Made by a program: the position numbers and the translations under genes. A DNA stretch of 63,601 nt, counting the filler, from Myxococcota bacterium (GTDB taxonomy: Bacteria; Myxococcota_C; UBA6777), in NCBI GenBank assembly GCA_023150835.1. It is 3 parts of 3 records of this genome, joined end to end, with 100 filler letters (N's around TTAATTAATTAA, not from the genome) between each part and the next. Parts side by side here need not be neighbours in the genome. Positions count along the whole stretch, not along the records: positions 27,032 to 53,655 come from JAKLKB010000094.1; 2 more parts are not named here. One strand, 5' to 3'. The notes under the pieces are model-generated. The model saw only the letters and a program-made list of their open reading frames with translations, was not told where the DNA came from and ran no database searches. Shown one piece after another: positions 26,932-49,767 of this stretch; the stretch's first letter is position 1, and every line of letters starts with the position of its first letter.

Positions 26932-27031
26932 NNNNNNNNNNNNNNNNNNNNNNNNNNNNNNNNNNNNNNNNNNNNTTAATTAATTAANNNNNNNNNNNNN
27001 NNNNNNNNNNNNNNNNNNNNNNNNNNNNNNN
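26932..27031. other. Artificial contig linker
   Basis: N44-TTAATTAATTAA-N44, stop codons in all six frames. Confidence 0.98.
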
Positions 27032-30972: not shown

Positions 30973-31034
30973 GCCTTCGACAAGATCGAAAGTAAAAACC
31001 AAAGCCTCACGGATATACACAACCCACCCTTCTA

Positions 31035-31150
31035 ACGCAAGCATCACACAAGAGACGCAAGCGTCACACAAGAGACGCAAGCATCACACAAGAGACGCAA
31101 GCATCACACAAGAGACGCAAGCATCACACAAGAGACGCAAGCATCACACA
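31035..31150. repeat. 20-bp tandem repeat, about 6 copies
   Basis: Unit ACGCAAGCATCACACAAGAG, upstream of the OPT gene. Confidence 0.93.
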
Positions 31151-31168
31151 GCACCAACCCAACAAAGA

Positions 31169-31293
31169 AACAAAGTCCGTGTTCGCTGTGCTTCAAGCGG
31201 CTGCGTCGTTTGATTGAAAAACGACTGTTCTCCCCATCAATACGGGGTCAAGGGAGCCGCGCTCCCTTGCGGGGTGTGGGGCAGCGCCCCACA
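31169..31293 (+). repeat. Dispersed ~125-bp multi-hairpin element, copy C
   Basis: GTGTTCGC..TTCAAGCG...TGAAAAAC...AATACGGGGTCAAGGGAGCCGCGCTCCCTTGCGGGGTGTGGGGCAGCGCCCCAC. Confidence 0.87.
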
Positions 31294-31440: not shown

Positions 31441-32310
31441 TCAATTCATCGAGTGTTTCTGATGATATAGCGATGTAAGATGGTACGTAGCGAGTTGTGC
31501 TTCTTTGGTGTTGGGGTAGCGTTGGGAAAGAAGTTCTGCGTCTTCGAGAGCTTGATCGATGTAGCCGAAGCGTTCGGCGATCTGCATACAAGCCATTAAA
31601 GCTGTCGGTTCGTGCGATGTCAGCGACCAAAGAAAGCGATGGATGCGATAAAAAGGGATCACCTCTTGTTGCTTTAAGTACGCATAACTCAGATTGCGCA
31701 AGATCCGCTCCAAGATATTGCGCGTGGGAGTGACATCAAGAAAGCGTTCCTCCCAGAAGGCCCGTCCGTGTGAGAGCGAGCGGAAACGCTCTTTGCATTC
31801 TTCACGAGACAGGATCTCTCCACCATGAAACGCATCAACAAAAACGCCCTTCTCTCCGCCCACCCGAACAAGAAAATGCCCCGGCATACCGACGCCTTCG
31901 ACACGAAAACCTGCGCGCTGCCCTACTTCCATCCACACCACCCCAAGCGATATCGGCAGCCCTCGACGGCGCAAGATCACACGCGAGATATAGCTATTTT
32001 GGGGCTGATGATACGACTCGGTGTCTCCTTGAAGATCCATCTCTTCGACCAACACGCGACGCAAGACTTCGGCTTGTGCATGGGGTTGAGCGCACTCCTC
32101 GGTCATCTGCACACGTTCTCCCCAAGCCGCAAGCTGTTCCAAACACACGGAACGATCCGAAGCATCGGCACGTTCCAAATACAACAACGCCTCAAGCAGT
32201 GCGTGTTGCAAAGTCGCCTTCAAAAACGACGCCAGCGCTTTATCGTCCGCTGGCGACCACAAGACATCTTCCGAGACTTCGCGGATCATCGGTTTTTCTT
32301 CCTTCGCCAT
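31441..32310 (-). CDS. SirB1 family (transglutaminase-like) protein with TPR tail
   Basis: GDTESY..PQNSY...V..RRRGLPISL, GVGMPGHFLV, VDAFHGG, RILRNL; start uncertain (32310 or 32289). Confidence 0.88.
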   Translation of the reverse strand: MAKEEKPMIREVSEDVLWSPADDKALASFLKATLQHALLEALLYLERADASDRSVCLEQLAAWGERVQMTEECAQPHAQAEVLRRVLVEEMDLQGDTESYHQPQNSYISRVILRRRGLPISLGVVWMEVGQRAGFRVEGVGMPGHFLVRVGGEKGVFVDAFHGGEILSREECKERFRSLSHGRAFWEERFLDVTPTRNILERILRNLSYAYLKQQEVIPFYRIHRFLWSLTSHEPTALMACMQIAERFGYIDQALEDAELLSQRYPNTKEAQLATYHLTSLYHQKHSMN

Positions 32311-32469
32311 CCTGCCAAAACAGCCACCCACACGCCACGACCCCAAAACGTTCACGCCAAAACGCTGGCCGTCTAAGCGCGATGTTTTCCTGCTTTTGTG
32401 ACGCGAAGACAAGCCACTTAGCCCACAGCACAGCAACATGGGATGCGACAAGACCGAAGACAAGGAACC

Positions 32470-32655: not shown

Positions 32656-33333
32656 ATGTCCGCAAGCTATTTTGACGTCGATGGGACGTTGGTTCGCACC
32701 AACCTGATCCACCCAACGCTGTATTACCTACGCGCCCAAGCCAACCCCATCAAATCCTTCAAAATGCTTGCACGCGCCTTTTCTCGCGGACCCGCGATGG
32801 CCCTTGCAGAACTTCGAGATCGGCGTCTGTTTAACGAGATGCTCTATGCCTCTTTTGAAGGCATGACCGAAGATCGTTTGCGCCTCTTTTCCGAAGAGAT
32901 CCACGAAGAGGTGTTAAAGCCACAACTTTACAAAGGTGCGCGAGATCTGATCCAGCGCAGCCTCGACAAAGGACACGAAGTCGTCCTTATATCGGGCGCT
33001 TTAGAAGTCGTACTCGAACACTTTGCCAAAGAAGTCGGCGCGCAGACGATCATCGCCAACCGCCTCGAAGTCAAAAACCACCGATTGACGGGAAAAATGT
33101 TGCGTCCAATTGTTGCAGGCCCAGAAAAGGCTCTCTTAATCCGACAACACGCAGCAGAAAAAGGATACGATCTCAACCACTGCAACGCGTATTCGGATTC
33201 TTACTCGGATGTGCCGATGCTGTCAGTGGTCGGTCACCCTGCCGCCGTCAATCCAGATGCAAAGCTCAAACAACTTGCGTTGGCCTACCAGTGGCCGATC
33301 GTTGATCTCGACGCAGGTAACGAGCGCAACTAA
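32656..33333 (+). CDS. HAD-IB family hydrolase (phosphoserine-phosphatase-like)
   Basis: FDVDGTL motif I, ISG motif II, YSDSYSD motif IV, VNPD. Confidence 0.92.
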   Translation: MSASYFDVDGTLVRTNLIHPTLYYLRAQANPIKSFKMLARAFSRGPAMALAELRDRRLFNEMLYASFEGMTEDRLRLFSEEIHEEVLKPQLYKGARDLIQRSLDKGHEVVLISGALEVVLEHFAKEVGAQTIIANRLEVKNHRLTGKMLRPIVAGPEKALLIRQHAAEKGYDLNHCNAYSDSYSDVPMLSVVGHPAAVNPDAKLKQLALAYQWPIVDLDAGNERN

Positions 33334-33416
33334 CCCTCTTCACTTCGGATCGATCGCCCTCCCCTCCTTGGAGGCTCGATCCCTGCAACGCGAATGTTGA
33401 AACAAGGCCAATCCCC

Positions 33417-34994
33417 ATGATCAATCACCCCTCTGTTTCTTATATCGACAACCACTCTGTTCCTCGTGTGATCTTCGCTGGGACACGCCTGATCGAAGTA
33501 GACCTTCCGGTTGGAACCCGCGTGATCTACCCCAATCCACCGCTTGAACCGCTCAAAGACGTCGATGCAGCCATCCGCTACGCGATCAACCACCCCCACA
33601 ACGCAGAGCCGTTGTATGCACGCTTAAAGCCCGGAATGAAGGTCTTTATCGCGGTCGACGATATCTCGCTCTCGCTGCCTCCGATGAAACAACCCGATGT
33701 GCGAGAGCGCATCTTACACATCGTTCTCGCCTTGCTTGCAGATTACGGCATCGACGATATCGAGATATGCGTCGCAACTTCGTTTCACCGCCGCATGACC
33801 GCTGCAGAAGTCCGTCACATGGTCGGAGACAAGATCTTCAAAGCATATTGGCCTGATCGGCTCTACAACCATGATGCCGAAGACAAGGACAATATGGAGT
33901 ACCTTGGAACAACCGATCATGGCGAAGAAGTCGAACTTAACAAACGCGCCGTTCAATCGGACTTGATCATCTACGTGAACCTCAACTTTGTGCCGATGGA
34001 TGGGGGACACAAATCGGTGAGCGTCGGTCTGTGCGGATACCGCAGCCTCAAAGCACACCACAATCCCAAAGTCATGCGCAAGTGCCATAGCTATATGGAC
34101 CCCGCCTCTTCCGAGCTCAACACCAGCGTCGAGCGGATGGGCAAACTCGCGAACAAACATCTCAATGTTTTTACGATCGAAACCACCGTCAATACGAAGA
34201 TGTTTGATGATCCGCTTTCCTTTTTGATGAAACAAGAAGACCGCTGGAACAGCGCCGAGCGCTTTGGATGCAAAGCGATGATCAAAACACTCGATGCCTT
34301 GCCTCAAATGGCGCGACAAAAGATCTTTGAGCGCGTCCACGCTCCCTACGGTGTGACGGGCGTTAACGCAGGCGAGACTGAGGCCACGCACAAAAAAACC
34401 CTCAAACGCGGCTTTGAACAGTTCTCCGTCCCCGTACAAGGACAGGCCGATATCTTGGTTTCAGGCATACCATACATCTCCCCTTACAACGTCAACGCCT
34501 ACCTCAATCCGCTGCTTGTGACGGTCATGGCCGAAGGCTACCTCTTTAATATGTACCGAGGAAAGCCGCTATTGAAAAAAGGCGGAACCATGATCATCAC
34601 CCACCCTTGTACAGACTACTTCGATCATGCGCAACACGCCCCATACATCGAGTTTGTCCACCGCCTACTCCCTCAAACACGCGATGCCATGAAGCTGCAT
34701 CACATGGAAGAAGACTTTGCTTCTAACCCCGCCTACATCGAGATGTATCGACGCGGACAAGCCTATCACCCCGCGCATCCGTTCTTTATGTGGTACTGGG
34801 GCGAAGCAGGACGCCAACACCGAGGCCGTGTGATCGTCGTAGGAGCCGACAATAGCTACATCCCGGAGCTACTTGGTTACGAAACAGCCAACAGCATGCA
34901 CGAAGCCCTTGAGATGGCCCAAGATACCGCGCCGCCCTCTCCACAGATCACACTACTCCACGTCCCGCCTATCTTGATCGCGGATGTGACCTGA
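33417..34994 (+). CDS. Lactate racemase (LarA/DUF2088) domain protein
   Basis: AINHP, VDD, HRRMT, YNHDA, LGTT..GEEVELN, GGHKS; context matches myxobacterial elb clusters. Confidence 0.85.
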   Translation: MINHPSVSYIDNHSVPRVIFAGTRLIEVDLPVGTRVIYPNPPLEPLKDVDAAIRYAINHPHNAEPLYARLKPGMKVFIAVDDISLSLPPMKQPDVRERILHIVLALLADYGIDDIEICVATSFHRRMTAAEVRHMVGDKIFKAYWPDRLYNHDAEDKDNMEYLGTTDHGEEVELNKRAVQSDLIIYVNLNFVPMDGGHKSVSVGLCGYRSLKAHHNPKVMRKCHSYMDPASSELNTSVERMGKLANKHLNVFTIETTVNTKMFDDPLSFLMKQEDRWNSAERFGCKAMIKTLDALPQMARQKIFERVHAPYGVTGVNAGETEATHKKTLKRGFEQFSVPVQGQADILVSGIPYISPYNVNAYLNPLLVTVMAEGYLFNMYRGKPLLKKGGTMIITHPCTDYFDHAQHAPYIEFVHRLLPQTRDAMKLHHMEEDFASNPAYIEMYRRGQAYHPAHPFFMWYWGEAGRQHRGRVIVVGADNSYIPELLGYETANSMHEALEMAQDTAPPSPQITLLHVPPILIADVT

Positions 34995-35184
34995 TCGACC
35001 TCGATCGTCGCAGATACGGCATGATCGACATCGAGCATCGCAGATGTGACCTGATCGACCTCAAGCATCGCAGATGTGACATGATCGACCTCAAGCATCG
35101 CAGATGTGACCTGATCGACCTTGAGCATCACAGATGTGACCTGATCGACCTTGAGCATCACAGATGTGACCTGATCGGCCTCGA
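34978..35184. repeat. 30-bp tandem repeat, about 7 copies; first copy is the end of the LarA-like gene
   Basis: Unit TCGCAGATGTGACCTGATCGACCTCAAGCA. Confidence 0.92.
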
Positions 35185-35273
35185 CGCAAAACCTCGCAAG
35201 CAGTCCCAACAACACACAAACAAGATACCTACGCCGCGCCCGACACAAGCGGCATTTGCTGACGGTGATTTCG

Positions 35274-38200
35274 ATGAAGACAAAACATAGCCAGCCTCTC
35301 CCCATCAAAACGACGCCCTCCACCCCGTCGTTCGAGCTTCAAAACAACGAAACCCTCGATGTAGAGGCAACGTTCCGAGGAAAAAACATCGTTGTCGTCG
35401 GAGGAACAGGCTTTTTGGGGAAAGTTTGGGTGTCGATGTTGCTTCATCGCTACCCTGATATCGGGCGTTTGTATCTGATGGTGCGCGCACGTCCTCATCT
35501 TTCCTCCGAGCAACGCTTTTGGCGCGAGATCGCCTCTTCCGAAGTCTTTCGGCCCCTACGCGAAAAGTACCAAGACAAAGCAGACGCTTTTCTCAAAGCA
35601 AAGATCCTCCCGATCGACGGCGATGTGTCGAAGCCCCGATGCGGGATCTCGCAAGAGCTTCAAGATGAACTACGCAGCCAAGCCCATGTCGTCGTGAACG
35701 TCGCGGGTGTTGTGGACTTCAATCCTCCCATCGACGAAGCCCTTCATGTCAACTGTTTTGGTGTGATCCACTTGATCGAACTGTGCCGAACGCTCGGCGA
35801 TCTGCCGCTTTTGCACACCAGCACTTGTTATGTCGCAGGCAACCGAGACGGCAATATCCCCGAGATCGATCCGCGCAGCTTTCCCTTCCCCTACTGCGAA
35901 AAGATCGACCCAACACACTGGGATCCCGAACGCGAGATCCAAGAAGGGCACCGGCTGACCGATCACGCAAAGCGCGAAGCCAGCGAGGCCTACCGTGAGT
36001 CCGAGTTTTTGACCACCGCCAAGGAAAACCTCAACCGCAAAGGCGAACCTTGCCGTGGTCCCGCACTTCAAGACGAGTTCGAACGCATCAAAAAGAAATT
36101 CATCGAAGAGATGCTCAGCGACGAAGGCGGAAAACGTGCGAATCACTGGGGCTGGACAAACACTTACACTTACAGCAAAAGCATCGGCGAACAGCTTTTG
36201 ATGCAATCAGGATTGCGCGCCACCATCGTTCGGCCTTCGATCGTCGAGTCTTGCGTCGAGTATCCTTTTCCCGGATGGAACGAAGGGATCAACACTTCTG
36301 CGCCGCTAATCTACATCATCGTGCATGGTGGAGCGACGATCTTCCCCGGTCGTTGGGACGTGATCCTCGATATCATCCCCAACGATATGGTCTGTGCAGG
36401 GATGATCTTTGCACTCGCTGCATTGATCGCCAACAAGCACAAGCCGGTCTATCAGTTGGCCTCAGGCGACACCAACCCTTTGATCATGAACCGCTCCATC
36501 GAATTATGCTCTCTTTACAAACATCGGATGCTGCGTAAAAAACCGCTGAGTAGTCCGCTACAACAGGCCATCCAATCCCTCTACGGTTCAGAAGGTGTGT
36601 CTGTCGATGATTTCGAGCGCTACGGGGTTCCCGCTTACAGTCGATGGGCCAAAGGGCTCTCCAAGATCACCCGAGAAGTCGGCAAGATCCCGGGTCTTGG
36701 CTTCTTGCGCGGTAGTGCAAAGCAGCTTGAACAAGCGTCGATCTCGTTGAAAAAGACGGCAGGGATCTTCAAAACGTTTATGCCGTTTATCTACGATCGG
36801 CGCTATCGTTTTGAAACCCGCAACACCCGAGAGCTTTATGCGATGCTCACACCACAAGATCGCGCCAAACTGCCTTGGACACCCGAAGCGATCGACTGGT
36901 ACAATTACTTTCTCGACACCCATATCCCCGGCCTCGAAAATTGGGTCCGCCCGCTGATCGAAGACAAGCTGCGCAAGACACTCAAGCCACTGCGCGCACA
37001 TGCCGATCTTGTCGCCATGATCGATGAAGTCGTAGACGATAACCCCTACGGTGTAGCCTTTCAAAAGCTCGTCGACGGGCGTCTCGAATCTGTGATGTAC
37101 CGAGAATTTCGCGCCAGCGCACGCCGCATCGCAGGGATGCTCCAAGCCGAAGGCATCACACGCGGCGATCGTGTCTTGCTTGCGGGAGCCAACAGCCCGA
37201 CGTGGCCGATCGCTTATTTTGGTATCCTTTACGCGGGAGCCACGGCTGTTCCGCTCGATCCCGACCTCGGAGCCGAACGCCTCCACACTCTCTTTCAATC
37301 TTCCAAAGCCCGCTTTGCGATCTGGGATCAAGCCTTTTATCGGGATGCTGGACACGTCCTCGTCGGAAATGGCGTGCAACCCGACCATCCGCCCGTCCCC
37401 TTCTTGCTTTTTGAAGATATCGAACAAAACAAACTTCCCGATCATCCTTACCAAGACGTGACGATCGATCCCGAAGATATCGCCAGCTTGATCTTTACCA
37501 GCGGCACAACGGGCCAGCCCAAGGGCGTGATGCTGACGCATACCAACTTCACCAAGATCCGCGCCTCCCTTGTTCCGCTGTTTCCGCTCAAACACCACGA
37601 CAGCGCCCTTTCTTTGTTGCCGCTCCATCACACCTTTGAGTTCACTTGCGGCCTCTTGCTTCCGCTCTCTTGCGGTGCGCGCATCACTTATCTCGAAGAA
37701 CTCAACGGCGACAACCTGATCACTGCACTCAAAGAAGCCCAAGTGACGGCTCTTGTCGGCGTTCCTGCCCTCTGGCAACTGCTCGCCAAACGCCTGCGTT
37801 CTCGCATCAAAGAACGTGGCGCTTTGCTCGAAAACCTATTTGACAACCTGCTCCAATTCAACCGCAGCATCGGAAAGATGACGGGGATCGATCTCGGAAA
37901 AACGCTGTTTGCCCCGATCCATGCGCAGCTTGGTGGACATCTGCGTTACTTGATCTCTGGCGGAGCAGCCCTGCCCAAAGAAACGCAAGAACTCTTTAAC
38001 GGCCTTGGTCTCCATCTTGCCGAAGGATACGGCCTGACCGAAGCCGCTCCTGTTCTCACCGTCGCCAAAGGCGGCCCCAACGAAAAGCTCGGACACGTCG
38101 GAAAACCCATCCCGGGCGTCGAAGTGCGCATCCACGATCCAAACAACGAAGGTATCGGCGAGATCATCGCACGCGGCCCAAACGTCATGGCTGGCTACGC

Positions 38201-40046
38201 CGACAATCCCGAAGCCACCGCTGCGGTCCTTGATCAAGACGGCTGGCTCCATACAGGCGACATCGGAAAGTTCGATCACAAGGGGCGTTTGACCATCGTG
38301 GGGCGTTCCAAAGAAGTGATCATCACCAGCAACGGAGAGAACGTCTATCCCGACGATCTCGAAGACATGATCGGCCTTCCTCGATCCATCAAAGAACTCG
38401 TCGTACTCGGCATCAGCGACGAGAGAAACACCGAAAAAGTTGCGATCATGGCCGTCCCTGCGTATGGAAAAGAAGCAGACGACCCATCGTTCACCTACGA
38501 ACAAGCCCTTCTCAAGGCCCGAACCGATCTCCATGACCGCTTCAAAAAACTGCCTTCTCACAGCCGCCCAAGCGTCATCCACTTCCAACCCGAAGCACTA
38601 CCGCGCACCGCCTCACGCAAAGTCAAGCGCAAAGAAGTCCGCGCATTGCTCGAAAAGATGGAGGCTCAACACGAGATCCAAGGCATCGAGACAACGGGCG
38701 AGATCTCCACGCAACTGATCAAAACGGTGGCGCGCCTCGCTGGCATCTCTTCGGAAAAGATCAAAGCAGAGACGCGCCTTGCTGCCGATCTCGGCCTTGA
38801 CTCCTTGATGATGGGTGAGCTCCACGCCGAACTGGAAAGGATGCTCGATCGCCGCATCAAAGCCGACGAACTCTCTTCTTACGAAACCATCGACGAGATC
38901 CAACGTTATCTTCAACGTACAGCAGGCGAACAGATCAGCCTCCACAACAGCGCCGATGTCTGGCTTGAAGAAGAGGCCGAAGACCACGACAAAAACACCA
39001 CGCCCCCGATCCTTCCCCGCGTCGTCCAAGACACCGTGAAAGATGTCCTACGCAACGTACAAGAAAGCTTTTACACAAGCGTCATGGACACCAAAGTGTA
39101 CGGACGCGCCAACATCCCGCACAACCGCCCCACCCTGATCGCAGCCAACCACGCAAGCCACCTTGATACGGGCCTTGTTCGCACAGCCCTCGGCTCCTAC
39201 GGCGATCAACTCGTCACTCTCGGCGCACAAGATTATTTCTTCAAAGACGATCTCCGCCGCTTCTACTTTGAAAACTTTACCAACGTCGTTCCCGTCGATC
39301 GCAAGGGCGGTTTTGACAAAAGCCTTGAGGCAGCTCGCAACGTCCTACGCGAGGGCAAGACGCTGTTGATCTTCCCCGAAGGAACCCGCAGCAAAGACGG
39401 CTCCATCGCTGCGTTTAAACCGGGCATCGGCTATCTCGCCCAAGAATTCGACCTCGATATCCTCCCGATCTACCTGAGCGGAACGTACCAAAGTATGCCC
39501 AAAGGCCGCGCCGTACCGACCAAACGCAAACTGCGTGCTTATATCGGCGCTCCCCTCGATATCGAACAACTCAAAGCCCTCGTCCAAGGTCGCGAGATCC
39601 CCGAAGCTTCGCGCATCCTTACACACATCATCCAAACGGCGATCGAACACTTGCGCGATAAAAAGCGCTTCGATCTCGCCGCCTACGAGATCCCCAAAAC
39701 CAAAGAAAAAGAAGACAAACCCGAAGATATCGTCCCTGCTCTGTTTGCTTACCTCAAAGATCGCTTTAACCAAAAAGAAGTCGAAGAACCTCTCTGCTTC
39801 TACTTCACCCTCGGCGAAGATGCCCAAAGCAAGTGGAGTATCGAGATCGGCAAACAAAGCTGCGCGATCCATCCCGGCAAACCCTCCCAAGGTGCCGCCG
39901 ATTGCGTCCTCAAGACCTCTCCCGAGATCTTCCGACAGATCGTCAAAGAGTCCTATGTTCCCGATCCCGATATGTTCTTTTCTGGACAGATCAAATCCAA
40001 CAATCCTTTCTTACTCCAACACTTCGTTCGGATCTTTAACCTGTAG
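35274..40046 (+). CDS. elbD: ElbD-like multifunctional enzyme: fatty acyl reductase, acyl-CoA synthetase/adenylation, ACP, PlsC acyltransferase, SCP2-like domain
   Basis: GGTGFLG, STCYV and YTYSK (FAR); FTSGTTGQPKG, YGLTE, TGDIG (AMP-binding); LGLDSL (Ppant Ser); NHASHLD and FPEGTRS (PlsC); C-terminal ADCVLKTS...FFSGQIK. Confidence 0.9.
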   Translation: MKTKHSQPLPIKTTPSTPSFELQNNETLDVEATFRGKNIVVVGGTGFLGKVWVSMLLHRYPDIGRLYLMVRARPHLSSEQRFWREIASSEVFRPLREKYQDKADAFLKAKILPIDGDVSKPRCGISQELQDELRSQAHVVVNVAGVVDFNPPIDEALHVNCFGVIHLIELCRTLGDLPLLHTSTCYVAGNRDGNIPEIDPRSFPFPYCEKIDPTHWDPEREIQEGHRLTDHAKREASEAYRESEFLTTAKENLNRKGEPCRGPALQDEFERIKKKFIEEMLSDEGGKRANHWGWTNTYTYSKSIGEQLLMQSGLRATIVRPSIVESCVEYPFPGWNEGINTSAPLIYIIVHGGATIFPGRWDVILDIIPNDMVCAGMIFALAALIANKHKPVYQLASGDTNPLIMNRSIELCSLYKHRMLRKKPLSSPLQQAIQSLYGSEGVSVDDFERYGVPAYSRWAKGLSKITREVGKIPGLGFLRGSAKQLEQASISLKKTAGIFKTFMPFIYDRRYRFETRNTRELYAMLTPQDRAKLPWTPEAIDWYNYFLDTHIPGLENWVRPLIEDKLRKTLKPLRAHADLVAMIDEVVDDNPYGVAFQKLVDGRLESVMYREFRASARRIAGMLQAEGITRGDRVLLAGANSPTWPIAYFGILYAGATAVPLDPDLGAERLHTLFQSSKARFAIWDQAFYRDAGHVLVGNGVQPDHPPVPFLLFEDIEQNKLPDHPYQDVTIDPEDIASLIFTSGTTGQPKGVMLTHTNFTKIRASLVPLFPLKHHDSALSLLPLHHTFEFTCGLLLPLSCGARITYLEELNGDNLITALKEAQVTALVGVPALWQLLAKRLRSRIKERGALLENLFDNLLQFNRSIGKMTGIDLGKTLFAPIHAQLGGHLRYLISGGAALPKETQELFNGLGLHLAEGYGLTEAAPVLTVAKGGPNEKLGHVGKPIPGVEVRIHDPNNEGIGEIIARGPNVMAGYADNPEATAAVLDQDGWLHTGDIGKFDHKGRLTIVGRSKEVIITSNGENVYPDDLEDMIGLPRSIKELVVLGISDERNTEKVAIMAVPAYGKEADDPSFTYEQALLKARTDLHDRFKKLPSHSRPSVIHFQPEALPRTASRKVKRKEVRALLEKMEAQHEIQGIETTGEISTQLIKTVARLAGISSEKIKAETRLAADLGLDSLMMGELHAELERMLDRRIKADELSSYETIDEIQRYLQRTAGEQISLHNSADVWLEEEAEDHDKNTTPPILPRVVQDTVKDVLRNVQESFYTSVMDTKVYGRANIPHNRPTLIAANHASHLDTGLVRTALGSYGDQLVTLGAQDYFFKDDLRRFYFENFTNVVPVDRKGGFDKSLEAARNVLREGKTLLIFPEGTRSKDGSIAAFKPGIGYLAQEFDLDILPIYLSGTYQSMPKGRAVPTKRKLRAYIGAPLDIEQLKALVQGREIPEASRILTHIIQTAIEHLRDKKRFDLAAYEIPKTKEKEDKPEDIVPALFAYLKDRFNQKEVEEPLCFYFTLGEDAQSKWSIEIGKQSCAIHPGKPSQGAADCVLKTSPEIFRQIVKESYVPDPDMFFSGQIKSNNPFLLQHFVRIFNL

Positions 40047-40071
40047 ATGGGACCTACACGATTGGGTTTGT

Positions 40072-40198
40072 TTTGCGGGGTTTGACCCCACACCCCACAA
40101 GGGAGCACGGCTCCCTTGACCCCGTGTTTGGCGAACAGAGCAAAGTTTTTCAACCCAGCAGCTCTGTCGCTTGAAGCGACACGAACACCGCTTTTTTG
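40072..40198 (-). repeat. Dispersed ~125-bp multi-hairpin element, copy D
   Basis: Reverse complement GTGTTCGTG..TTCAAGCG...TGAAAAAC...GGGGTCAAGGGAGCCGTGCTCCCTTGTGGGGTGTGGGGTCAAACCCCGC. Confidence 0.87.
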
Positions 40199-40215
40199 AT
40201 AGTTGCGTCACTCCT

Positions 40216-40333
40216 ATAGGACTTACGCAGCTCGATACGAAAAAGGCCCATGTTCGGGCGCGGGCGGTTCGCGAACCGCCCCTACAACGGGTTGATTCTT
40301 CACGCTTTCCCTCTTCCACTGCGTAACTCCTAT
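40216..40333. mobile_element. Candidate 118-bp MITE-like element with 15-bp terminal inverted repeats enclosing a GTAG-type REP
   Basis: ATAGGACTTACGCAG ... CTGCGTAACTCCTAT (1 mismatch); internal GGGCGGTTCGCGAACCGCCCCTAC at 40262-40285. Confidence 0.5.
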
Positions 40334-40360
40334 CCTACTGTAAAGAAAGGGATACGACGG

Positions 40361-41461
40361 ATGGCAACCTACTTCGTCACAGGAGCGACAGGCTTTTTGG
40401 GCGCGCATCTTGTGGATGCGCTGCTTGCTGCGGGGCATCAAGTGATCGCTCTTGTGCGCCAACCTCACCCACCACTCACCCAAAAAGGCGTACATACCGT
40501 CCTTGGCGATATCCTCGATATCGAAAGCGTCCGCGCTGCACTACGAACGCTATCCGCCCCATTCGACGGACTTTTTCACGCAGCAGGAAAAGTCTCCCGC
40601 GATCCTGACGATACACTCGCGATGACCCGCATGAACCACCACGGCACACGCAATACACTCAAGGCCGCCAAAGAAGCCGGCATCCCTCGCGTCGTCCATC
40701 TCAGCACTTCAGGAACCGTCGCCATCCGAGAAAAGCCCTCCCCCCTGCCCAACGAGACCTCCCCCACTCCACTCAAACTGCTTGGTCGACTTCCCTATTA
40801 CCGCTCCAAACTCTATGCAGAAGAAGACGCCCTACGCATGAATACTCCCGATTTTGCGGTGGTATCGCTGAATCCCTCTCTTCTGCTTGGCCCGGGCGAT
40901 ATCACAGGAGCCTCCACCAAAGAAGTCCGCCTCTTCCTCGAAGAAAAGATCCCCGCCCTGCCCTCGGGTGGTCTGTCTTTTGTCGATGTTCGCGATGTCG
41001 CCGATATCGCGGTAAGCGCGATCGAAAAAGCCCGCCCCGGGCAACGCTATCTGCTCGGTGGAGCCAATATGACCTTCGCGGACTTTTTTGGCCGCCTCGA
41101 ACGCGTCTCAGGGATCAAAGCCCCCACTCTCCCGATGCCCAAAGACGCCCTCCTTTCCGACCTCAGCCATCGCCTTTTCAAACGAGCCTCCGAAGCTCTC
41201 GGCCACAAGATCCATGTCCTCGACAGCGAGATCGATCAATCCCGTTATTTCTGGTATCTTGACGATACCCGCGCCCGCAAAGAACTCGACTTCAAAACCC
41301 GCGAACCCATGCAAACCCTTTACGACACGGTACAGGATCTTCGCACACGCGGCATCGTCTGGCCCACAGACGACACACCTTCCCTCGATACCAACGCTTG
41401 GCAAGACGACCTGCTTTCCGCCTCATGGCTGCGACAGATCCAAGGCAAAACCGCTCCATGA
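40361..41461 (+). CDS. NAD-dependent epimerase/dehydratase (ElbE/HpnA-like)
   Basis: TGATGFLG, FHAAG, YYRSK, LGPGD, FVDVRDVA. Confidence 0.9.
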   Translation: MATYFVTGATGFLGAHLVDALLAAGHQVIALVRQPHPPLTQKGVHTVLGDILDIESVRAALRTLSAPFDGLFHAAGKVSRDPDDTLAMTRMNHHGTRNTLKAAKEAGIPRVVHLSTSGTVAIREKPSPLPNETSPTPLKLLGRLPYYRSKLYAEEDALRMNTPDFAVVSLNPSLLLGPGDITGASTKEVRLFLEEKIPALPSGGLSFVDVRDVADIAVSAIEKARPGQRYLLGGANMTFADFFGRLERVSGIKAPTLPMPKDALLSDLSHRLFKRASEALGHKIHVLDSEIDQSRYFWYLDDTRARKELDFKTREPMQTLYDTVQDLRTRGIVWPTDDTPSLDTNAWQDDLLSASWLRQIQGKTAP

Positions 41462-42411
41462 AAACCGCACTGATTATTAACCCGCAGTCAGGGGGAGGAC
41501 GGACGCTTCGTCTCTGGCCGCAACTTGAACCCATGATCCGTCACTTTTTACCCGATGCAACGCCCCTTTGGACCGAGCAGATCGGACACGCTTGCACACT
41601 TGCCCAACAAGCCGCTTTTGAAGGTGCGGATCTTGTGATCGCCGTCGGCGGTGACGGCACACTCAACGAAGTCGTCAACGGCTTAATGCGACACCAAAGC
41701 GAGGCCATACGTACCAAAACACCGGATCTGGGGCTTTTTCCACAGGGTACAGGCGGCGATTTTCGCCGTTCGCTTGGCCTCGATCCGACACCCGCCAGCT
41801 ATCTCCAACGCCTCGCTCAGCCACGCACACGCAACCTCGATATCGGCAATCTGCGTTTTCTCGATCACGAAGGCACCCCAACGCAACGATATTTTGTCAA
41901 CGTCGCCTCGGTCGGGCTGGGCGGACTGGTCGATCAGCAGATCCAGCACACACGCAGCTCCAATGCCCAACGTGCCTACCTCGCCGCTTCCTTGCATGCG
42001 CTTCGAGACAACGTCTTGGCTCCGCTTCACATCGAGATCGCAGCACCACACGCCCCGACGACGCGCACCCAACAGCAACTACACTCTCGCAATCTGGCGA
42101 TCTGCAATGCCCGATTCTTCGGCGGCGGGATGCAGATCGCTCCCCATGCACGACCTGATGACGGGCTTTTTGATGTCGTCAACTTTGCCCACCCTTCCCG
42201 CCTTCATCTCATCCCCTTGCTCCCCTCCCTCTACGAGGGCAAACACCTCACACGGGCGCACGTCCAATCTTTTCGTGCTGCCGACCTCCACATCACACTC
42301 GCTGATCCCGACCTCGCCGATCGCGTCCTCCTTGATGTGGACGGTGAGGCCCTTGGCCGCCTCCCCCTTCGCGTCGAAATGATACCTTCCGCCCTTCGCT
42401 TGCGCCTTTGA
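41458..42411 (+). CDS. Diacylglycerol/lipid kinase family protein (YegS/DagK-like)
   Basis: INPQSG, VGGDGTLNEV, GTGGDF, FGGG, DGLFDV, DVDGE; ATGA overlap with upstream gene. Confidence 0.92.
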   Translation: MKTALIINPQSGGGRTLRLWPQLEPMIRHFLPDATPLWTEQIGHACTLAQQAAFEGADLVIAVGGDGTLNEVVNGLMRHQSEAIRTKTPDLGLFPQGTGGDFRRSLGLDPTPASYLQRLAQPRTRNLDIGNLRFLDHEGTPTQRYFVNVASVGLGGLVDQQIQHTRSSNAQRAYLAASLHALRDNVLAPLHIEIAAPHAPTTRTQQQLHSRNLAICNARFFGGGMQIAPHARPDDGLFDVVNFAHPSRLHLIPLLPSLYEGKHLTRAHVQSFRAADLHITLADPDLADRVLLDVDGEALGRLPLRVEMIPSALRLRL

Positions 42412-42443
42412 TCACCCAAAAAACACAAGCCCCACTCTCGCCG

Positions 42444-44990
42444 CTAATACTTCAAGCGCGCCCACAGCATCATATCGAATTTTTCTTGGGGATAGAGCAA
42501 CACGTTGTTCGCGTCGTAGTTATCGCGATTTAGAAGATTACTCAAACGCAAGATCAGATCGAGATGCCCAAAGATCCGCTGCACTTGGAAAGTAAAGTAA
42601 GACTGAATAAACCAAGGCGTCTCCAACGCAGGATCGTCTGCCGCCGTCCAGTTCGGCACAGTCTGCCCTCCCGGAAGTGTCCCTGTCATGGTAAAGGCGA
42701 TCGCTGGAGTCTTTTTGGGACTCGCCACCGTCATCCCCAATGAAAAGACCAGATCGATGGGCTTGAGGCGCAGCTTGTAAGACGCCATCAAGTTCGCCGT
42801 CAACCACGCCGCATAATCGGGGGCTTGGAAGAACTTGGTTTCTCCGTTCGCTTGGGTGTTTTGGAAGAACACCCCGAAACTGGCACGCACATTCAAACCA
42901 CGCACAAAAAACAAGCGTAGCTCGGCTTCTCCGCCGTAAGTGTAAAGATCCCCTTCGTTGGCTTTTTGACGAAAGGCTGCGGTCGGATCAGGCCGTTGTG
43001 ACTCAGGAAAGCTTTCGGCAGATTCAAGCGGGTCTCCTGCTTTCCGCACAGCGTAAGCGATGAGGTTTCGGAAATAAGAAAAATACCCGTTGAGGCTGAC
43101 CGCCATCACGTTTCGGCGCGACCAACCCAACTGAAGCTCCCCAGTATGCACGCTCTCAGGTGCCACCTTTGGATTCCCGTAAAAGTTATTCTTGCGATAA
43201 AAATACAGATCGTGAAACGACGGCGCTTTGAAGGCGTTGCCGTAGAGCAGCTTGGTATAAAAACCACCCCCCGGCGTCAAAACCACCGCAGCACGGGGCG
43301 TTGCCACAAACCCATACCGTTGGTCGTAGTCGACACGCCCCCCTAAAGTAAACTCCACAAACTGCCCCACTTTGTATTGTAGTTGCAAAAAGCCGCTGGC
43401 ATGGATGTTATCGAAAAACGGATCGCTGATCTTGTCGGCTTGCCAAACCTCGGGAAAGTAAAATCGCAAGAGGTTCACGTACTCGAAATCAAAACCGACC
43501 GTCGCAGAAAGCCCCCGAACGATCTGCGCGCTCAACTGCCCGCCCGCTTCGACACGCACATCACGCGCTGCCAGCTTCACAATTCGACGCTTCGTCGGAT
43601 CGAATGCCTGTTCCTCGTATTGTGCGCCATCAATAAACTGATAATGATCAAACGACGACCACAACACCAACTGCCCCCAAGAACCCAACAACGTTGCCCA
43701 CGCAAGACGCACAAAGTGCCGATCTGTCGAAAGACGTGTATCGTCCCCGTCGAGATTGCTAAAGCTACTCATCGGCCCCGTCGGATCATAGCGGCTTTGG
43801 TGATAAGTTAAGTTCCAACCCCGCCAAGTGATCTGCGTAAAGAAATTTTGCGAGTAACTTCGATCTCCCAACGGGATGTGGCGGATCGGAGTGCCTCCCT
43901 TCAAGTTCAAAAACTCGTAGATCGGAGCCAAGATCGGGCTACGGTTCTCGTTCACCATCGAAAAAGAGGCCCGAAAATTCAAGCCGCCAAAGACTTCTTG
44001 CCCGCCCTGTAACGTCAAAAAGCTGCTTTGACTCAGAGGACTCCCGCCGATCGTTCCTGACAAGCCCTTGAGATCCGTTCCTGTCTTGGTGATGATGTTG
44101 ATCACGCCGCTAAGAGCGTTTGCGCCCCAAAGAGCCGAACCCGGGCCTCGGATGATCTCGATCCGCTTGATGTTGTCGATGCTAACCCAAGATGAATTGA
44201 TATAGTTCCGAAAGAACTGCCGCCATGCCATGATATGACCGTCCAACAACACCACGATCTTCTCTCCATAAGAGATCCGTGGATTGACGCCCCGCATCCC
44301 GATATCCGGCCAGTGACCGTTGTTATTGATATCGATCCCCACCACATAACGCATCAAGTCCAGCAAAGAACGATGCCCGCTGTCTCGGATATCCGCCTCC
44401 GTAATAACCGTCACCACCGCAGGCGCACTTTGGATGCGTTCTTCTTTCCTCGATGCTGTAAAGACTTTGCCTTCTTCTTCGCCGAATTCCTCTTCGTCTG
44501 TGCTTGGTGCTGTCGGCGCATCTCCCGCGATAGTTGGTGCATCCCCCACCGTAATCTGAGAGGGCGATGCTTCGGACGCAAACAACGCCACAGGTTTTTT
44601 GTTGACGTCCACCCCCCGCACATAATACTCCATCGCAGGCTTACGGACTTGGATACTCTCCAAGATCATCCGATAGCGATCTCCCCCAAACAACGTCATC
44701 CGCGAGCAAAGATAACGCACCTCGCCTTTTCGTCGAAAGCAAAAAGACACCTCGTCGAGATCATCGTTGTTCGTGATCTGCCCCTCCAGCACATAGCGCG
44801 TCCCCGCCTGTAGTCGTTGCGGAGGCTTGTGAACAAAAGCCAATTTCTCGGCTTTCCCTTCAGCGGATGCTGTTTTCCCCGCAAATAGCGCCATACAAAC
44901 AACCATAGACGCCCACACTCCCACAAAACAGGCCCCGTTTTTCAAGAGAGATCCCAAGATAGCTCTTTCCCACTCAAACGCTCGGTGCAT
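42444..44990 (-). CDS. TonB-dependent receptor with N-terminal extension
   Basis: TASRKEE..AP..VTVIT, NIKRIEIIRGPGSALWGANALSGVINIITK plug motif, FKAPSF, NLLN, terminal aromatic residue; start uncertain. Confidence 0.92.
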   Translation of the reverse strand: MHRAFEWERAILGSLLKNGACFVGVWASMVVCMALFAGKTASAEGKAEKLAFVHKPPQRLQAGTRYVLEGQITNNDDLDEVSFCFRRKGEVRYLCSRMTLFGGDRYRMILESIQVRKPAMEYYVRGVDVNKKPVALFASEASPSQITVGDAPTIAGDAPTAPSTDEEEFGEEEGKVFTASRKEERIQSAPAVVTVITEADIRDSGHRSLLDLMRYVVGIDINNNGHWPDIGMRGVNPRISYGEKIVVLLDGHIMAWRQFFRNYINSSWVSIDNIKRIEIIRGPGSALWGANALSGVINIITKTGTDLKGLSGTIGGSPLSQSSFLTLQGGQEVFGGLNFRASFSMVNENRSPILAPIYEFLNLKGGTPIRHIPLGDRSYSQNFFTQITWRGWNLTYHQSRYDPTGPMSSFSNLDGDDTRLSTDRHFVRLAWATLLGSWGQLVLWSSFDHYQFIDGAQYEEQAFDPTKRRIVKLAARDVRVEAGGQLSAQIVRGLSATVGFDFEYVNLLRFYFPEVWQADKISDPFFDNIHASGFLQLQYKVGQFVEFTLGGRVDYDQRYGFVATPRAAVVLTPGGGFYTKLLYGNAFKAPSFHDLYFYRKNNFYGNPKVAPESVHTGELQLGWSRRNVMAVSLNGYFSYFRNLIAYAVRKAGDPLESAESFPESQRPDPTAAFRQKANEGDLYTYGGEAELRLFFVRGLNVRASFGVFFQNTQANGETKFFQAPDYAAWLTANLMASYKLRLKPIDLVFSLGMTVASPKKTPAIAFTMTGTLPGGQTVPNWTAADDPALETPWFIQSYFTFQVQRIFGHLDLILRLSNLLNRDNYDANNVLLYPQEKFDMMLWARLKY

Positions 44991-45089: not shown

Positions 45090-45216
45090 CAAAAAAAGCC
45101 GTCTTCGCGCCGTTTCAAGCGACAGAGTTGCCAGTTTGAAAAACGTATGTTTTCTTCGCCAACGCGGGGTCAAGGGAGCCGCGCTCCCTTGTGGGGTGTG
45201 GGGCAACGCCCCACAA
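45090..45216 (+). repeat. Dispersed ~125-bp multi-hairpin element, copy E
   Basis: TTCGCG..TTCAAGCG...TGAAAAAC...GGGGTCAAGGGAGCCGCGCTCCCTTGTGGGGTGTGGGGCAACGCCCCAC. Confidence 0.87.
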
Positions 45217-45386: not shown

Positions 45387-46298
45387 ATGCCCCAACAAAA
45401 GATCCCCACGCCACCCCACAACAACAACGACGCCGCTGCCTCCAAGAGCGCGGAACTTACAAGCCCGCTGCTCCAACGCCCGCTCCCTCCACGCCATCAC
45501 GCCAAACTTAAAACCTACCTGCTCGGGATGTTGCATCTCCCACGTCTACTCGAAGGCCCCGCAGCCCTGCCGATGCGCCAGATCGTTCAACGAGCCATCA
45601 TAGACGCACAGATCCTCACCGATGCTGGTTTCGACGCCCTGATCATCGAGAACTTTGGCGACACTCCTTTTTACCCCGATCAAGTCCCTCCCCACACTGT
45701 CTCCGCGATCACACGCGTTGCCTGTGCTGTTCAAGACGCCCTCCATCAACGCCATGCGTCTCCCCCTCACCTCGGGATCAATGTTTTGCGCAACGATGCT
45801 GTCGCGGCCCTTTCGATCGCTGCGGCGAGCGATGCAGCGTTTGTACGCATCAACGTCCACAGCGGAGCCATGATCACCGATCAAGGTATCATCGAAGGAA
45901 AAGCTCACATCACCCTACGCCTTCGCCAACAGATCGCCCCCAACGTACGGATACTCGCCGATATCCGAGTCAAACATGCCGCGCCTATCGCTCCGCGCTT
46001 ACCTGCCGACGAAGCCCTCGATACATGGCAACGCGCCCATGCCGATGGCATCGTCCTTTCAGGCTCACACACAGGCTCTCCCACCAACCCCCGAACCCTC
46101 CAAGAACTCCGCGAAGCACTCCCCGAATGCCCCCTTTACATCGGCTCGGGCGCAACCATCGAACAACTGCCCAACCTCCTCCCCCATGCTACGGGGCTTA
46201 TCGTTGGGACATCGCTCAAATACAACGGCATCTCCACCGAAGCCGTCGATCCCCAACGAGCCGAAGCCTTTGTGCGCGCTGTCCACAACCACCCATAA
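45387..46298 (+). CDS. btpA: BtpA/SgcQ family protein
   Basis: GMLHL, IENFGDTPF, GINVLRND, TDQGIIEG, VKHA, GSG, VGTSLK; start uncertain. Confidence 0.9.
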   Translation: MPQQKIPTPPHNNNDAAASKSAELTSPLLQRPLPPRHHAKLKTYLLGMLHLPRLLEGPAALPMRQIVQRAIIDAQILTDAGFDALIIENFGDTPFYPDQVPPHTVSAITRVACAVQDALHQRHASPPHLGINVLRNDAVAALSIAAASDAAFVRINVHSGAMITDQGIIEGKAHITLRLRQQIAPNVRILADIRVKHAAPIAPRLPADEALDTWQRAHADGIVLSGSHTGSPTNPRTLQELREALPECPLYIGSGATIEQLPNLLPHATGLIVGTSLKYNGISTEAVDPQRAEAFVRAVHNHP

Positions 46299-46306
46299 CC
46301 CGATCA

Positions 46307-46672
46307 ATCCGCCTGTTTTGGCACCACCGACCACCCAAAAAACCTGTCATCCGCCTGTTTTGGCACCACCGACCACCCAAATAACCTGTCATCAGCTTGT
46401 TTTGGCACCACCGACCACCCAAATAACCTGTCATCAGCTTGTTTTGGCACCACCGACCACCCCAAAGGACCTGTCATCCGCTTGTTTTGGCACCACCGAC
46501 CACCCAAATAGCCTGTCATCCGCTTGTTTTGGCACCACCGACCACCCAAATAGCCTGTCATCAGCTTGTTTTGGCACCACCGACCACCCAAATAACCTGT
46601 CATCCGCTTGTTTTGGCACCACCGACCACCCAAATAACCTGTCATCAGCTTGTTTTGGCACCACCGACCACC
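46307..46672. repeat. 42-bp tandem repeat, 9 copies (one 43 bp), no unique spacers
   Basis: TGTTTTGGCACCACCGACCAC at 46314, 46356, 46398, 46440, 46483, 46525, 46567, 46609, 46651. Confidence 0.96.
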
Positions 46673-46752
46673 GCTGCGACGCTTGCGCTTTTCGTGCATT
46701 TGTGGAAACGTCACCCACCCACCCAAGCCACCCAAGCATGGAGGCCTCTGTC

Positions 46753-49705: not shown

Positions 49706-49767
49706 GAAGCACCCGCCTTCTAACAGCCCCTCCCCGATGCGTCAAGTCACTCCGGTGAACTGTAAGG

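Follow-up and report, generated by a model that had tools for sequence, protein, structure and literature searches.

The operon at positions 32656-42411 of the DNA that we analysed (a stretch of 63,601 nucleotides, hereafter the window, made of three contigs joined with runs of N) is a variant of the known elb ether-lipid system, in which elbA is absent and a sixth function, that of a lipid kinase, has been gained. It comes from the MAG of an uncultured activated-sludge Myxococcota bacterium. We infer with moderate confidence, from sequence and genomic context, that the kinase would act on a product of the elb pathway, phosphorylating a neutral glycerol ether and returning it to phospholipid synthesis. 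All five genes, elbB, elbC, elbD, elbE and the kinase gene, lie on a single contig and read in the same direction (+ strand); their positions agree, exactly or within a small margin, with those of a preliminary description of this DNA. That description called the locus a five-gene elb-like cluster; the gene count holds, but the five genes of Myxococcus xanthus are elbA-E, whereas here elbA is missing and the kinase gene is the fifth. The features are as follows.

32656..33333, + strand: elbB-like HAD-IB phosphohydrolase, 225 aa (Pfam HAD and TIGR01490)
33417..34994, + strand: elbC-like LarA homologue, 525 aa (Pfam Lar_N and NF052592)
34947..35216, no strand: 30-nt tandem repeat, seven overlapping register copies, filling the elbC-elbD spacer (repeat search)
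35256..40046, + strand: elbD-like multidomain enzyme, 1596 aa (Pfam domain order)
40065..40197, no strand: copy of a dispersed repeat of ~130 nt in the elbD-elbE spacer (repeat search)
40361..41461, + strand: elbE-like extended SDR, 366 aa, start ATG 40361 (Pfam Epimerase)
41458..42411, + strand: YegS/DgkB-family soluble lipid kinase, 317 aa (DAGK_cat and YegS_C)
42444..44990, - strand: convergent TonB-dependent receptor gene (Pfam Plug and TonB_dep_Rec_b-barrel)

The first three spacers are not tight (83 nt for elbB-elbC, ~260 nt for elbC-elbD and ~314 nt for elbD-elbE). Both DNA and RNA contigs break at the 30-nt tandem repeat. The ~130-nt repeat has inverted and direct copies at 31169-31293 and 45091-45215 and at least 40 scored copies genome-wide (648 first-look candidates) at 79-85% identity; in a DNA run, depth at its copy in the elbD-elbE spacer is ~525x, against 10-14x on the flanks. 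At the last junction (ccATGAaa, 41456-41463), the kinase ATG at 41458 overlaps the elbE TGA stop at 41459-41461 by 4 nt, just as the preliminary description had read it. In the closest relative (L009, 96% identical) a 49-nt indel has produced a 45-nt spacer in place of the overlap. Assembled metatranscriptome contigs, obtained in three runs on one sample and free of strand or transcript-end information, start at about 32531 and span elbB to elbE, and two of them (41109-41808 and 40752-41540) bridge the elbE-kinase junction. RNA contigs extend only to about 41945, leaving the 3' half of the kinase gene uncovered. The TonB-dependent receptor gene, which has no RNA contig against about 10x in the DNA run, is the operon boundary and lies outside the operon.

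The elbD product starts at a TTG (35256), with an ATG at codon 7, and combines a NAD_binding_4/'male sterility' reductase, AMP-binding, PP-binding and Acyltransferase domains in this order (Pfam; residues 48-381, 606-981, 1153-1219 and 1280-1407). These correspond to a fatty-acyl reductase, an acyl-AMP ligase, an ACP and a PlsC-type acyltransferase, followed by a C-terminal SCP2-fold domain. The motifs GxTGFxGK, Y304xxxK308, TSGTTGxPK, D-S1183-L and H1299xxxxD1304 are invariant in 12 orthologues. An Aas or wax-ester identity of the large enzyme was considered and rejected: Aas models score far under their cut-offs, the four-domain order is that of ElbD, and the elbBCDE synteny is found in cultured Cystobacterineae as well; ElbD was also the assignment made in the preliminary description. 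The fifth domain, formed by the C-terminal 156 aa, has a predicted SCP2 fold (pLDDT 92; Foldseek matches to SCP-2L and SdsA1 at 6e-6). ElbD proteins of the Cystobacterineae type lack it, ending near window residue 1450-1480, and identity to their representatives is only about 38-40%.

The elbB product matches PF12710 (HAD, 6e-37) and TIGR01490 (HAD-IB, 145 bits against a cut-off of 98), and its orthologues occupy the same position in 40 or more loci. Its motif I, 'FDVDGT', falls at residues 6-11 with the start at ATG 32656. A possible alternative start in the same frame lies further 5' (ATG 32443), but it would place the DxDxT motif far from the N-terminus. The elbC product is a putative nickel-pincer-nucleotide-dependent isomerase, matching Lar_N (Pfam, 2e-39), NF052592 (NCBIfam 'NPN-dependent hydroxyacid isomerase, LarAH14/15/16 family'; cut-off 740, score 808 bits) and, as closest solved structure, 9q2u, a 'LarA-like NPN cofactor-utilizing enzyme' (2e-35). 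It is 52-74% identical to the product of the gene immediately 5' of elbD in Archangium, Hyalangium, Vitiosangium and Polyangia loci, and larC, the gene for cofactor insertion, occurs at another site of the same genome. The elbE product (Epimerase 3e-30, 3Beta_HSD 3e-15; HpnA-like model 196 bits, under the cut-off of 368) contains 'TGATGFLG' and 'YYRSK', and an elbE orthologue stands immediately 3' of elbD in nearly all loci. The order elbB-C-D-E recurs in 6 of the 11 loci of a first set, in many of the 80 loci of a larger one, and in cultured Hyalangium versicolor, Archangium lansingense, A. minus and Vitiosangium sp. Judged by homology and gene order, the locus is thus an elbBCDE operon, orthologous and syntenic with the elb operons of cultured myxobacteria.

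The kinase matches DAGK_cat (3e-27) and YegS_C (3e-32) in Pfam, has GGDGT at 64-68 and 'VDGE' at about 295, and passes TIGR00147 at subfamily level (136 bits against a cut-off of 119), while every NCBIfam equivalog model tried, including those of the DgkB type and YegS, scores below its cut-off. The DAGK_cat superfamily takes in sphingosine, ceramide and acylglycerol kinases. The closest solved relatives are 4wer (4e-21), Staphylococcus aureus DgkB (2qv7, 8e-17) and YegS, and the best NCBIfam names, 'lipid kinase' and 'diacylglycerol kinase', agree with them. These relatives would fit a general diacylglycerol (or monoacylglycerol) kinase that recycles ester-linked DAG into phosphatidic acid and shares its expression with the elb genes only through membrane-lipid homeostasis, having no ether-specific role. 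We regard this as unlikely, in part because the genome holds three other DAGK_cat genes, one of which, the full-length YegS-type paralogue L101 of another clade, could serve the housekeeping role.

The preliminary description asked how often such a kinase is attached to elb loci; the linkage is real, but it is found in a minority. A kinase lies directly 3' of elbE in 11 of 104 assessable ElbD loci, and 91 of the 104 have none within about 5-7 kb, nor does any of 51 mostly Cystobacterineae-type loci, the group of the characterised M. xanthus system. An ElbD-side survey of 91 loci (58 assessable negatives, 20 too short for judgement) gave a kinase HMM hit immediately 3' of elbE at 11 loci and, at 2 others, a hit 4.3-5.3 kb further downstream. 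When the search started from the kinase instead, each of the best 4 of 80 relatives (41-49% identity) was preceded immediately by elbD-elbE. With the window and two of the kinase-side loci included, there are 14 distinct elbE-kinase pairs, 13 of them at other species-level loci, so the linkage does extend to relatives. Seven pairs share the 4-nt overlap ([A/G]TGA), six have spacers of 14-85 nt and one a spacer of 728 nt. The recurrence after elbE, the shared overlap and a single lineage that tracks ElbD rule against a chance neighbour. The overlap in half of the pairs also suggests a stoichiometric partnership between ElbE and the kinase, which would not be expected of a general DAG kinase.

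In phylogenetic trees the window kinase falls into a clade supported at SH-aLRT 100 (24 of 93 rows in one tree, 26 of 83 in another), comprising 11 elbE-adjacent members, two nearby ones and the unlinked orthologues of Sorangium, Polyangium and Minicystis. The branching order within this clade follows that of the ElbD tree: the lineage occurs only in genomes whose elbDE is of the Polyangia or Nannocystaceae type and has diverged in parallel with ElbD, again unlike what a general DAG kinase would lead one to expect. Two genomes of the large kinase-less ElbD clade yielded no orthologue of the kinase, their best matches (36-37% identity) belonging to another clade. On the other hand, in Sorangium, Polyangium and Minicystis the orthologue is separated from elbDE by roughly 100-150 kb or sits on a different contig. 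The linkage is therefore dispensable, and the orthologues function unlinked, as a general DAG kinase could.

Might the adjacency be nothing more than inherited synteny of a functionally unrelated gene? A single origin of all myxobacterial elbE-adjacent kinases was not rejected in the AU test (p-AU 0.573), the constrained tree having the higher likelihood, and thus the linkage may be one old inherited event rather than repeated recruitment; moreover, the linkage state changes at least 7 times on the ElbD tree, with repeated loss. Both observations would suit an unrelated neighbour. However, adjacency persists at kinase identities down to 33-49% (ElbD about 45-55%), while every locus examined has different genes 3' of the kinase (TonB receptor, YceI, LuxR-type, DUF899, Kelch, ParA, GGDEF, ApbA, ADH). 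By this comparison the conserved block stops at the kinase. Among 82 downstream ORFs of kinase-less loci, no other kinase family or recurrent lipid gene occupies the post-elbE slot. The recurring stop/start overlap argues in the same direction, as do a related but separate kinase clade that, in two genomes of Aridibacter (Acidobacteriota), adjoins an ElbD-like gene without the reductase part, and an independent report from sponge symbionts (bioRxiv 10.64898/2026.06.23.733905). We therefore consider an unrelated neighbour very improbable.

In the reading that we prefer, phosphorylation of an elb product, the substrate would most likely be a neutral glycerol ether formed at or after the ElbE step, probably the product of ElbE itself, with 1-O-alkylglycerol and 1-O-alkyl-2-acylglycerol as candidates. 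Phosphorylation at sn-3 by the kinase, at the expense of ATP, would give a compound that might be a substrate for the acyltransferase domain of ElbD, or might take the place of phosphatidic acid, as its ether analogue, in CDP-activated synthesis of head groups, or both. Since most elb clusters have no kinase, the step would be one of accessory routing or salvage rather than of ether-bond chemistry. If true, this hints at a version of the pathway that passes through an unphosphorylated ether-glycerol needing re-phosphorylation. The preliminary description had the kinase opposing the HAD phosphatase, an idea that gained no specific support: the kinase travels with elbE and elbD, and elbB is in the locus for only about half of the kinase-linked cases. 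The superfamily's breadth and weak PDB matches to sphingosine kinase 1 and AGK leave some room for a different lipid, related to the pathway or not, for instance a fatty alcohol released by the reductase domain of ElbD and made into an alkyl phosphate donor, or a ceramide or sphingoid base. Yet an alkyl-donor kinase should be universal in elb clusters, and this one is absent from most, including the mostly Cystobacterineae-type loci; we know of no DAGK_cat enzyme that uses a simple fatty alcohol, and Pfam reveals no sphingolipid gene in the locus. Such substrates appear improbable.

The M. xanthus operon, elbABCDE (MXAN_1531-MXAN_1527; Lorenzen et al. 2014, via PMC9131029 and PMC13012113), encodes an SDR, a HAD protein, a protein of unknown function, FAR-ACS-ACP-AT and a second SDR, and the operon descriptions in these two articles list no kinase, in line with the preliminary description. 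The two systems share the phylum, elbB (HAD), an unassigned or LarA-like elbC, elbD and elbE (SDR), and their ElbD proteins share domain order and motifs; the window differs by the YegS-type kinase after elbE and the additional SCP2-fold domain. A search of the 93%-complete genome, run without a positive control, found no CarF-type desaturase, so the products are probably alkyl rather than vinyl ether lipids.

The kinase is an addition relative to the M. xanthus operon as described in those articles; kinases beside elb-like clusters are not wholly new. A 2026 preprint (Loureiro et al., bioRxiv 10.64898/2026.06.23.733905) reports that, in sponge symbionts, glycerol-3-phosphate acyltransferases and DAG kinases adjoin the elb-like clusters of clades 1 and 2. 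These clusters, like that of the window, are centred on elbD/elbB with variable accessory genes, but their hosts are Poribacteria and Acidobacteriota, and the relevant text of the preprint gives the kinase one sentence, as phosphatidic acid precursor supply (a reading that favours a general DAG kinase), with no analysis there of linkage, phylogeny or coupling to elbE. DgkB (S. aureus, 2qv7) and YegS (E. coli/Salmonella, 2bon, 2jgr, 2p1r) share with the window kinase DAGK_cat, the YegS_C beta-sandwich, the GGDGT nucleotide-binding motif and the C-terminal 'DGE' motif; E-values of only 1e-14 to 1e-21, the missed equivalog cut-offs and a different genomic context set it apart. A precedent for the preferred reading comes from animal ACAD10, in which, according to a preprint (PMC13596139), a HAD phosphatase and a kinase act as 1-O-alkyl-2-acetyl-G3P phosphatase and 1-O-alkylglycerol kinase, and sn-2 discrimination is argued to limit futile cycling. 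What the two systems share is a HAD-type phosphatase encoded alongside a lipid kinase in an ether-lipid setting. However, the fold of the ACAD10 kinase is an atypical, protein-kinase-like one rather than DAGK_cat, the HAD domain of ACAD10 is EPHX2-like rather than HAD-IB, and both domains reside in one polypeptide serving salvage and PAF synthesis; the likeness is therefore best regarded as analogy, not homology.

The five-gene region lies entirely on one contig of a 7.56-Mb genome that is 93% complete. N runs at 26932-27031 and 53656-53755 separate the three contigs of the window, and genes across them are not necessarily neighbours. As the preliminary description had proposed, 32656-42411 holds five co-oriented ORFs, whose families we assigned with Pfam and NCBIfam, and the kinase start codon overlaps the stop of the preceding SDR gene in an ATGA junction.

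Genes of the elb-like cluster (window positions 32656-42411, + strand)
First ORF, + strand: HAD-IB hydrolase (elbB); TIGR01490, 145 bits against a cut-off of 98
Second ORF, + strand: LarA homologue (elbC); NF052592 'LarAH14/15/16', 808 against a cut-off of 740
Third ORF, + strand: elbD, product of 1596 aa; reductase, AMP-binding, PP-binding and Acyltransferase domains, in this order
Fourth ORF, + strand, stop at 41459-41461: extended SDR (elbE), by Pfam/NCBIfam
Fifth ORF, + strand, ATG at 41458: kinase; DAGK_cat and YegS_C, TIGR00147 135.9 bits against 118.65

The remaining junctions are loose (83 nt, ~260 nt and ~314 nt), and repeats occupy the two long ones. A 30-nt tandem repeat (34947-35216; unit about ATCGCAGATGTGACCTGATCGACCTCAAGC, 7 register copies) runs from the last elbC codons through the elbC-elbD spacer, and both DNA and RNA assemblies break there. 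The elbD-elbE spacer contains, at 40065-40197, a dispersed repeat of ~130 nt with a palindromic core, also present at 31169-31293 and 45091-45215. Genome-wide, at least 40 scored copies (648 first-look candidates) share 79-85% identity, with depth ~40-fold in excess in the DNA run, and the repeat looks like a MITE/REP-type element. Further tandem repeats lie at 31015-31170 (20 nt), 46223-46718 (42 nt), 47411-47554 (12 nt) and 49548-49735 (31 nt); the second and third of these fall inside an ORF (45976-47682) with a weak PD-(D/E)XK_2 transposase-like match. Promoter and terminator scans returned no more sites than shuffled sequence did.

The ElbD product carries reductase (48-381), ligase (606-981), ACP (1153-1219) and PlsC-type acyltransferase (1280-1407) Pfam domains, in the order expected of ElbD. 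The Rossmann GxxGxxG, YxxxK, A-domain TSGTTGxPK, ACP serine and HX4D motifs are all invariant in an alignment of 12 sequences. The alternative proposed for this protein was an acyl-ACP synthetase/lysophospholipid acyltransferase of the Aas type. The Aas models match the ligase part only and score far below their cut-offs (PRK08633, 230 vs 1221; PRK06814, 177 vs 1349). The domain order also speaks against Aas, which places the acyltransferase N-terminal to the ligase and has no reductase. The closest relative, another Myxococcota MAG, has a 96% identical ElbD and a six-gene neighbourhood of identical make-up. The order HAD, LarA-like, ElbD, SDR recurs in Polyangia loci and in the cultured Hyalangium versicolor, Archangium lansingense, A. 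minus and Vitiosangium sp. The closest named Cystobacterineae ElbD proteins are 38-40% identical over ~1450 residues. The final scan of genomes matched Archangium, Hyalangium, Vitiosangium and a Myxococcus sp. MAG but not M. xanthus, whose ElbD (MXAN_1528) was compared by its published description. Taken together, gene order, ElbD motifs and the low Aas scores identify the cluster, at the level of sequence, as an elbBCDE operon without elbA.

ElbD also has a fifth domain. Its C-terminal 156 residues (~1441-1596; window 39576-40043) are modelled with an SCP2 lipid-carrier fold (pLDDT 92), for which Foldseek matches include human SCP-2L, the SCP2 domain of the alkylsulfatase SdsA1 and UbiJ (E 6e-6 upward); Pfam alone gives E 0.013. 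This domain is conserved in Polyangia-type ElbD (alignment A3), and Cystobacterineae-type ElbD proteins stop before it. ElbC, in turn, is by its family model a putative member of the LarA superfamily of NPN-dependent 2-hydroxyacid isomerases, and the LarA-like genes of the cultured Hyalangium, Archangium and Vitiosangium loci are 52-53% identical to it; its best solved relative is 9q2u, a 'LarA-like NPN cofactor-utilizing enzyme' (2e-35). LarC (PF01969, 4e-137), which inserts nickel into the LarA cofactor, has its gene at another place in the genome, as do three further DAGK_cat genes (contig positions for larC and these genes, C167:30693-32198 and C52:522-908). One of the three is a full-length YegS-type paralogue that falls in a different clade from the kinase behind elbE. 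A search for the CarF/PEDS1 family found no match in the window's genome and none in the control genomes either, so this negative does not demonstrate absence of such a desaturase.

The kinase itself belongs to the YegS/Rv2252/BmrU family, with DAGK_cat and YegS_C domains and a TIGR00147 score over the cut-off. GGDG[T/S] was found in 24/24 kinases examined and, by a simple pattern search, a C-terminal 'DGE' in 19/24; the window kinase has both GGDGT and DGE. Although of this family, it falls below the equivalog cut-offs for DgkB or YegS proper (PRK13057, 122/274; PRK13054, 110/284; PRK11914, 99/302; TIGR03702, 92/387), and judged from these models it is a YegS/DgkB family member at the subfamily level only.

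How consistently is this kinase associated with elb genes? We surveyed 91 ElbD loci and then 51 more, mostly of Cystobacterineae type, using a kinase HMM made with 81 relatives. In 11 loci the kinase is the gene directly behind elbE; in 2 others it lies farther downstream, at 4.3-5.3 kb. It is missing from 58 + 33 = 91 loci that extend 1.5 kb or more past elbE, and 20 + 18 = 38 loci were too short for judgement (the 33/18 split was counted from the survey table). This amounts to 11/104 assessable loci with a directly linked kinase, and 0/51 in the second, mostly Cystobacterineae-type set. Since the surveyed loci are the best-scoring subset (best 80 plus 62) of ~560 pattern hits, the linked fraction is not a census. 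Viewed from the kinase side, elbD-elbE are immediately upstream in 4/4 best of 80 relatives (41-49% identity), and one further relative has convergent elbDE ~4.4 kb off. With no contig counted twice, the elbE-kinase pairs number 14, among them those of Plesiocystis pacifica SIR-1 and Enhygromyxa salina SWB007. Their junctions are 4-nt overlaps (ATGA or GTGA) in 7/14, spacers of 14-85 nt in 6/14 and a 728-nt spacer in 1/14. Between the window (41456-41461) and the locus of its closest relative (L009, 9852-9899), a 49-nt indel, readable in either direction, switches between the 45-nt spacer of the relative and the 4-nt overlap of the window. The gene 3' of the kinase differs in every locus examined, and the conserved block therefore ends at the kinase.

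Loci without the kinase do not appear to replace it. Among 82 ORFs downstream of elbE in such loci, we found neither a different kinase family nor any lipid gene that recurs; the sole kinase domains were those of Sorangium histidine kinases. An M48 peptidase recurs in 6 of these loci and FolB in 2, which looks like local synteny. Other arrangements of related genes were also seen. In two Aridibacter genomes (Acidobacteriota; loci L030, 6149-11667, and L033), a compact lipid cluster runs from a PlsC-like acyltransferase through a 216-aa ORF and a YegS-type kinase to a 904-aa ligase-acyltransferase, an ElbD-like enzyme without the reductase domain, and the kinase stop lies 10 nt 5' of the start of this last gene. 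In Minicystis rosea (locus L120, 12945-16517), the gene directly behind elbE encodes a 1191-aa carboxylic-acid-reductase-like protein (AMP-binding, PP-binding, NAD_binding_4), which places a second module for fatty-acyl reduction next to the elb genes.

In an IQ-TREE analysis of 93 kinases, the window protein falls in a clade (SH-aLRT 100) that comprises 11 elbE-adjacent kinases, 2 nearby ones, 10 from Sorangium and one from a contig labelled Actinomycetota. We then added the best kinases from five genomes in which elbDE have no neighbouring kinase. Those of Polyangium jinanense and Minicystis rosea belong to the clade of the window kinase as relocated orthologues, the Minicystis kinase lying ~150 kb from elbD; those of two genomes of the large kinase-less ElbD clade and of one Cystobacterineae genome fall outside it, the orthologue being absent. 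In the ElbD FastTree (93 rows), linked loci are found on the two basal branches of Polyangia type and within a 13-row clade of Polyangiaceae; none occurs in a 35-row clade, and at least 7 state changes are needed. Repeated recruitment within Myxococcota would agree with the free kinase tree, in which the Nannocystaceae kinases stand apart. However, the AU test does not reject a single clade (p-AU 0.573), and the tree constrained to unite Nannocystaceae with the main kinase clade is 5.76 log-likelihood units better than the free tree. Most simply, the kinase was recruited behind elbE once, long ago, and was relocated and lost several times afterwards.

The genes are also seen in RNA. Sequencing runs of activated sludge and wastewater from 10 studies contain the stretch, and metatranscriptome contigs (3 runs, one sample) cover elbB-elbC, elbD and elbE. 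Two RNA contigs, 41109-41808 and 40752-41540, span the elbE-kinase junction, consistent with co-transcription of the two genes; this evidence comes from one sample, as assembled contigs that show neither strand nor transcript ends, and their cover ends near 41945. The RNA runs do not cover 41945-42411 (the kinase 3' half) or 31948-32421, regions on which the contigs alone say nothing. RNA contigs are likewise absent over 42376-44745, a convergent TonB receptor gene where the DNA run reaches ~10x, which argues against DNA carry-over.

What might the kinase do? The preliminary description had it opposing the HAD phosphatase, a role that finds no specific support, as only about half of the kinase-linked loci contain elbB. 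The constant place of the kinase behind elbE suggests that its substrate is what ElbE produces. Being, in this proposal, an accessory enzyme, the kinase would not be part of ether-bond formation. By analogy with the animal ether-lipid pathway, ElbE may be a reductase yielding a glycerol ether, which the kinase would then phosphorylate. PlsC-type acyltransferases normally use lysophosphatidate-like acceptors, and the phosphorylated ether could be used by the PlsC-type domain of ElbD or by CDP-diacylglycerol synthase. We put forward tentatively, as a possibility rather than an expectation, that the elbE-linked kinase is a bacterial 1-O-alkylglycerol/alkylacylglycerol kinase of a fold unrelated to that of ACAD10, the recently assigned animal enzyme; its tight pairing with ElbE would in that case mean that the ElbD route runs via a free, unphosphorylated glycerol ether. 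On such a route, ElbB would strip the phosphate early, ElbE would reduce and the kinase would restore the phosphate. Were this true, it would constrain the mechanism of AGPS-independent ether-bond formation, open since 2014. An ether-glycerol kinase would also represent a second, non-homologous route to alkylglycerol phosphorylation beside ACAD10; a general DAG kinase would make the arrangement a routine operon variant. An accessory kinase paired with elbE in a defined lineage is a testable hint on the intermediate leaving ElbE, and two cultivable organisms, Plesiocystis pacifica SIR-1 and Enhygromyxa salina, carry the arrangement.

The 2022 review (PMC9131029), where it discusses ElbD-type ether-bond formation without an AGPS enzyme, treats it as unresolved and leaves the roles of ElbB, ElbC and ElbE unassigned. 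One sentence of a 2026 preprint (bioRxiv 10.64898/2026.06.23.733905) states that DAG kinases adjoin elb-like clusters in sponge symbionts, where they are taken to supply precursors. Our search for literature on elb-linked kinases found no analysis of the elbE-kinase pair beyond that sentence, and the top 10 matches for alkylglycerols in Nannocystis or myxobacteria gave nothing useful. Relative to the literature found, the analysis of the pair is new, while the presence of DAG kinases near elb-like clusters had already been mentioned.

Finally, the window operon can be set against known systems. As described in the operon passages of PMC9131029 and PMC13012113, the M. xanthus operon MXAN_1531-1527 comprises elbA (SDR), elbB (HAD), elbC (unknown), elbD (FAR-ACS-ACP-AT) and elbE (SDR), and alkyl ether lipids need elbD and probably elbE. 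These passages list no kinase, in keeping with the suggestion that the characterised cluster lacks one. The window operon differs from elbABCDE in having no elbA and in having a kinase behind elbE. The enzymes may differ as well: four domains are listed for M. xanthus ElbD in the review, and the SCP2-fold domain is not among them. In animals, ACAD10 is described (PMC13596139) as joining an ether-lipid HAD phosphatase to a 1-O-alkylglycerol kinase. Its kinase is of the APH-type fold with an HYDxK motif, whereas the window kinase matches only DAGK_cat and YegS_C, so the analogy is functional only. With that difference in kinase fold, ACAD10, as described there, is a functional precedent for pairing a phosphatase with a kinase in the metabolism of ether lipids.
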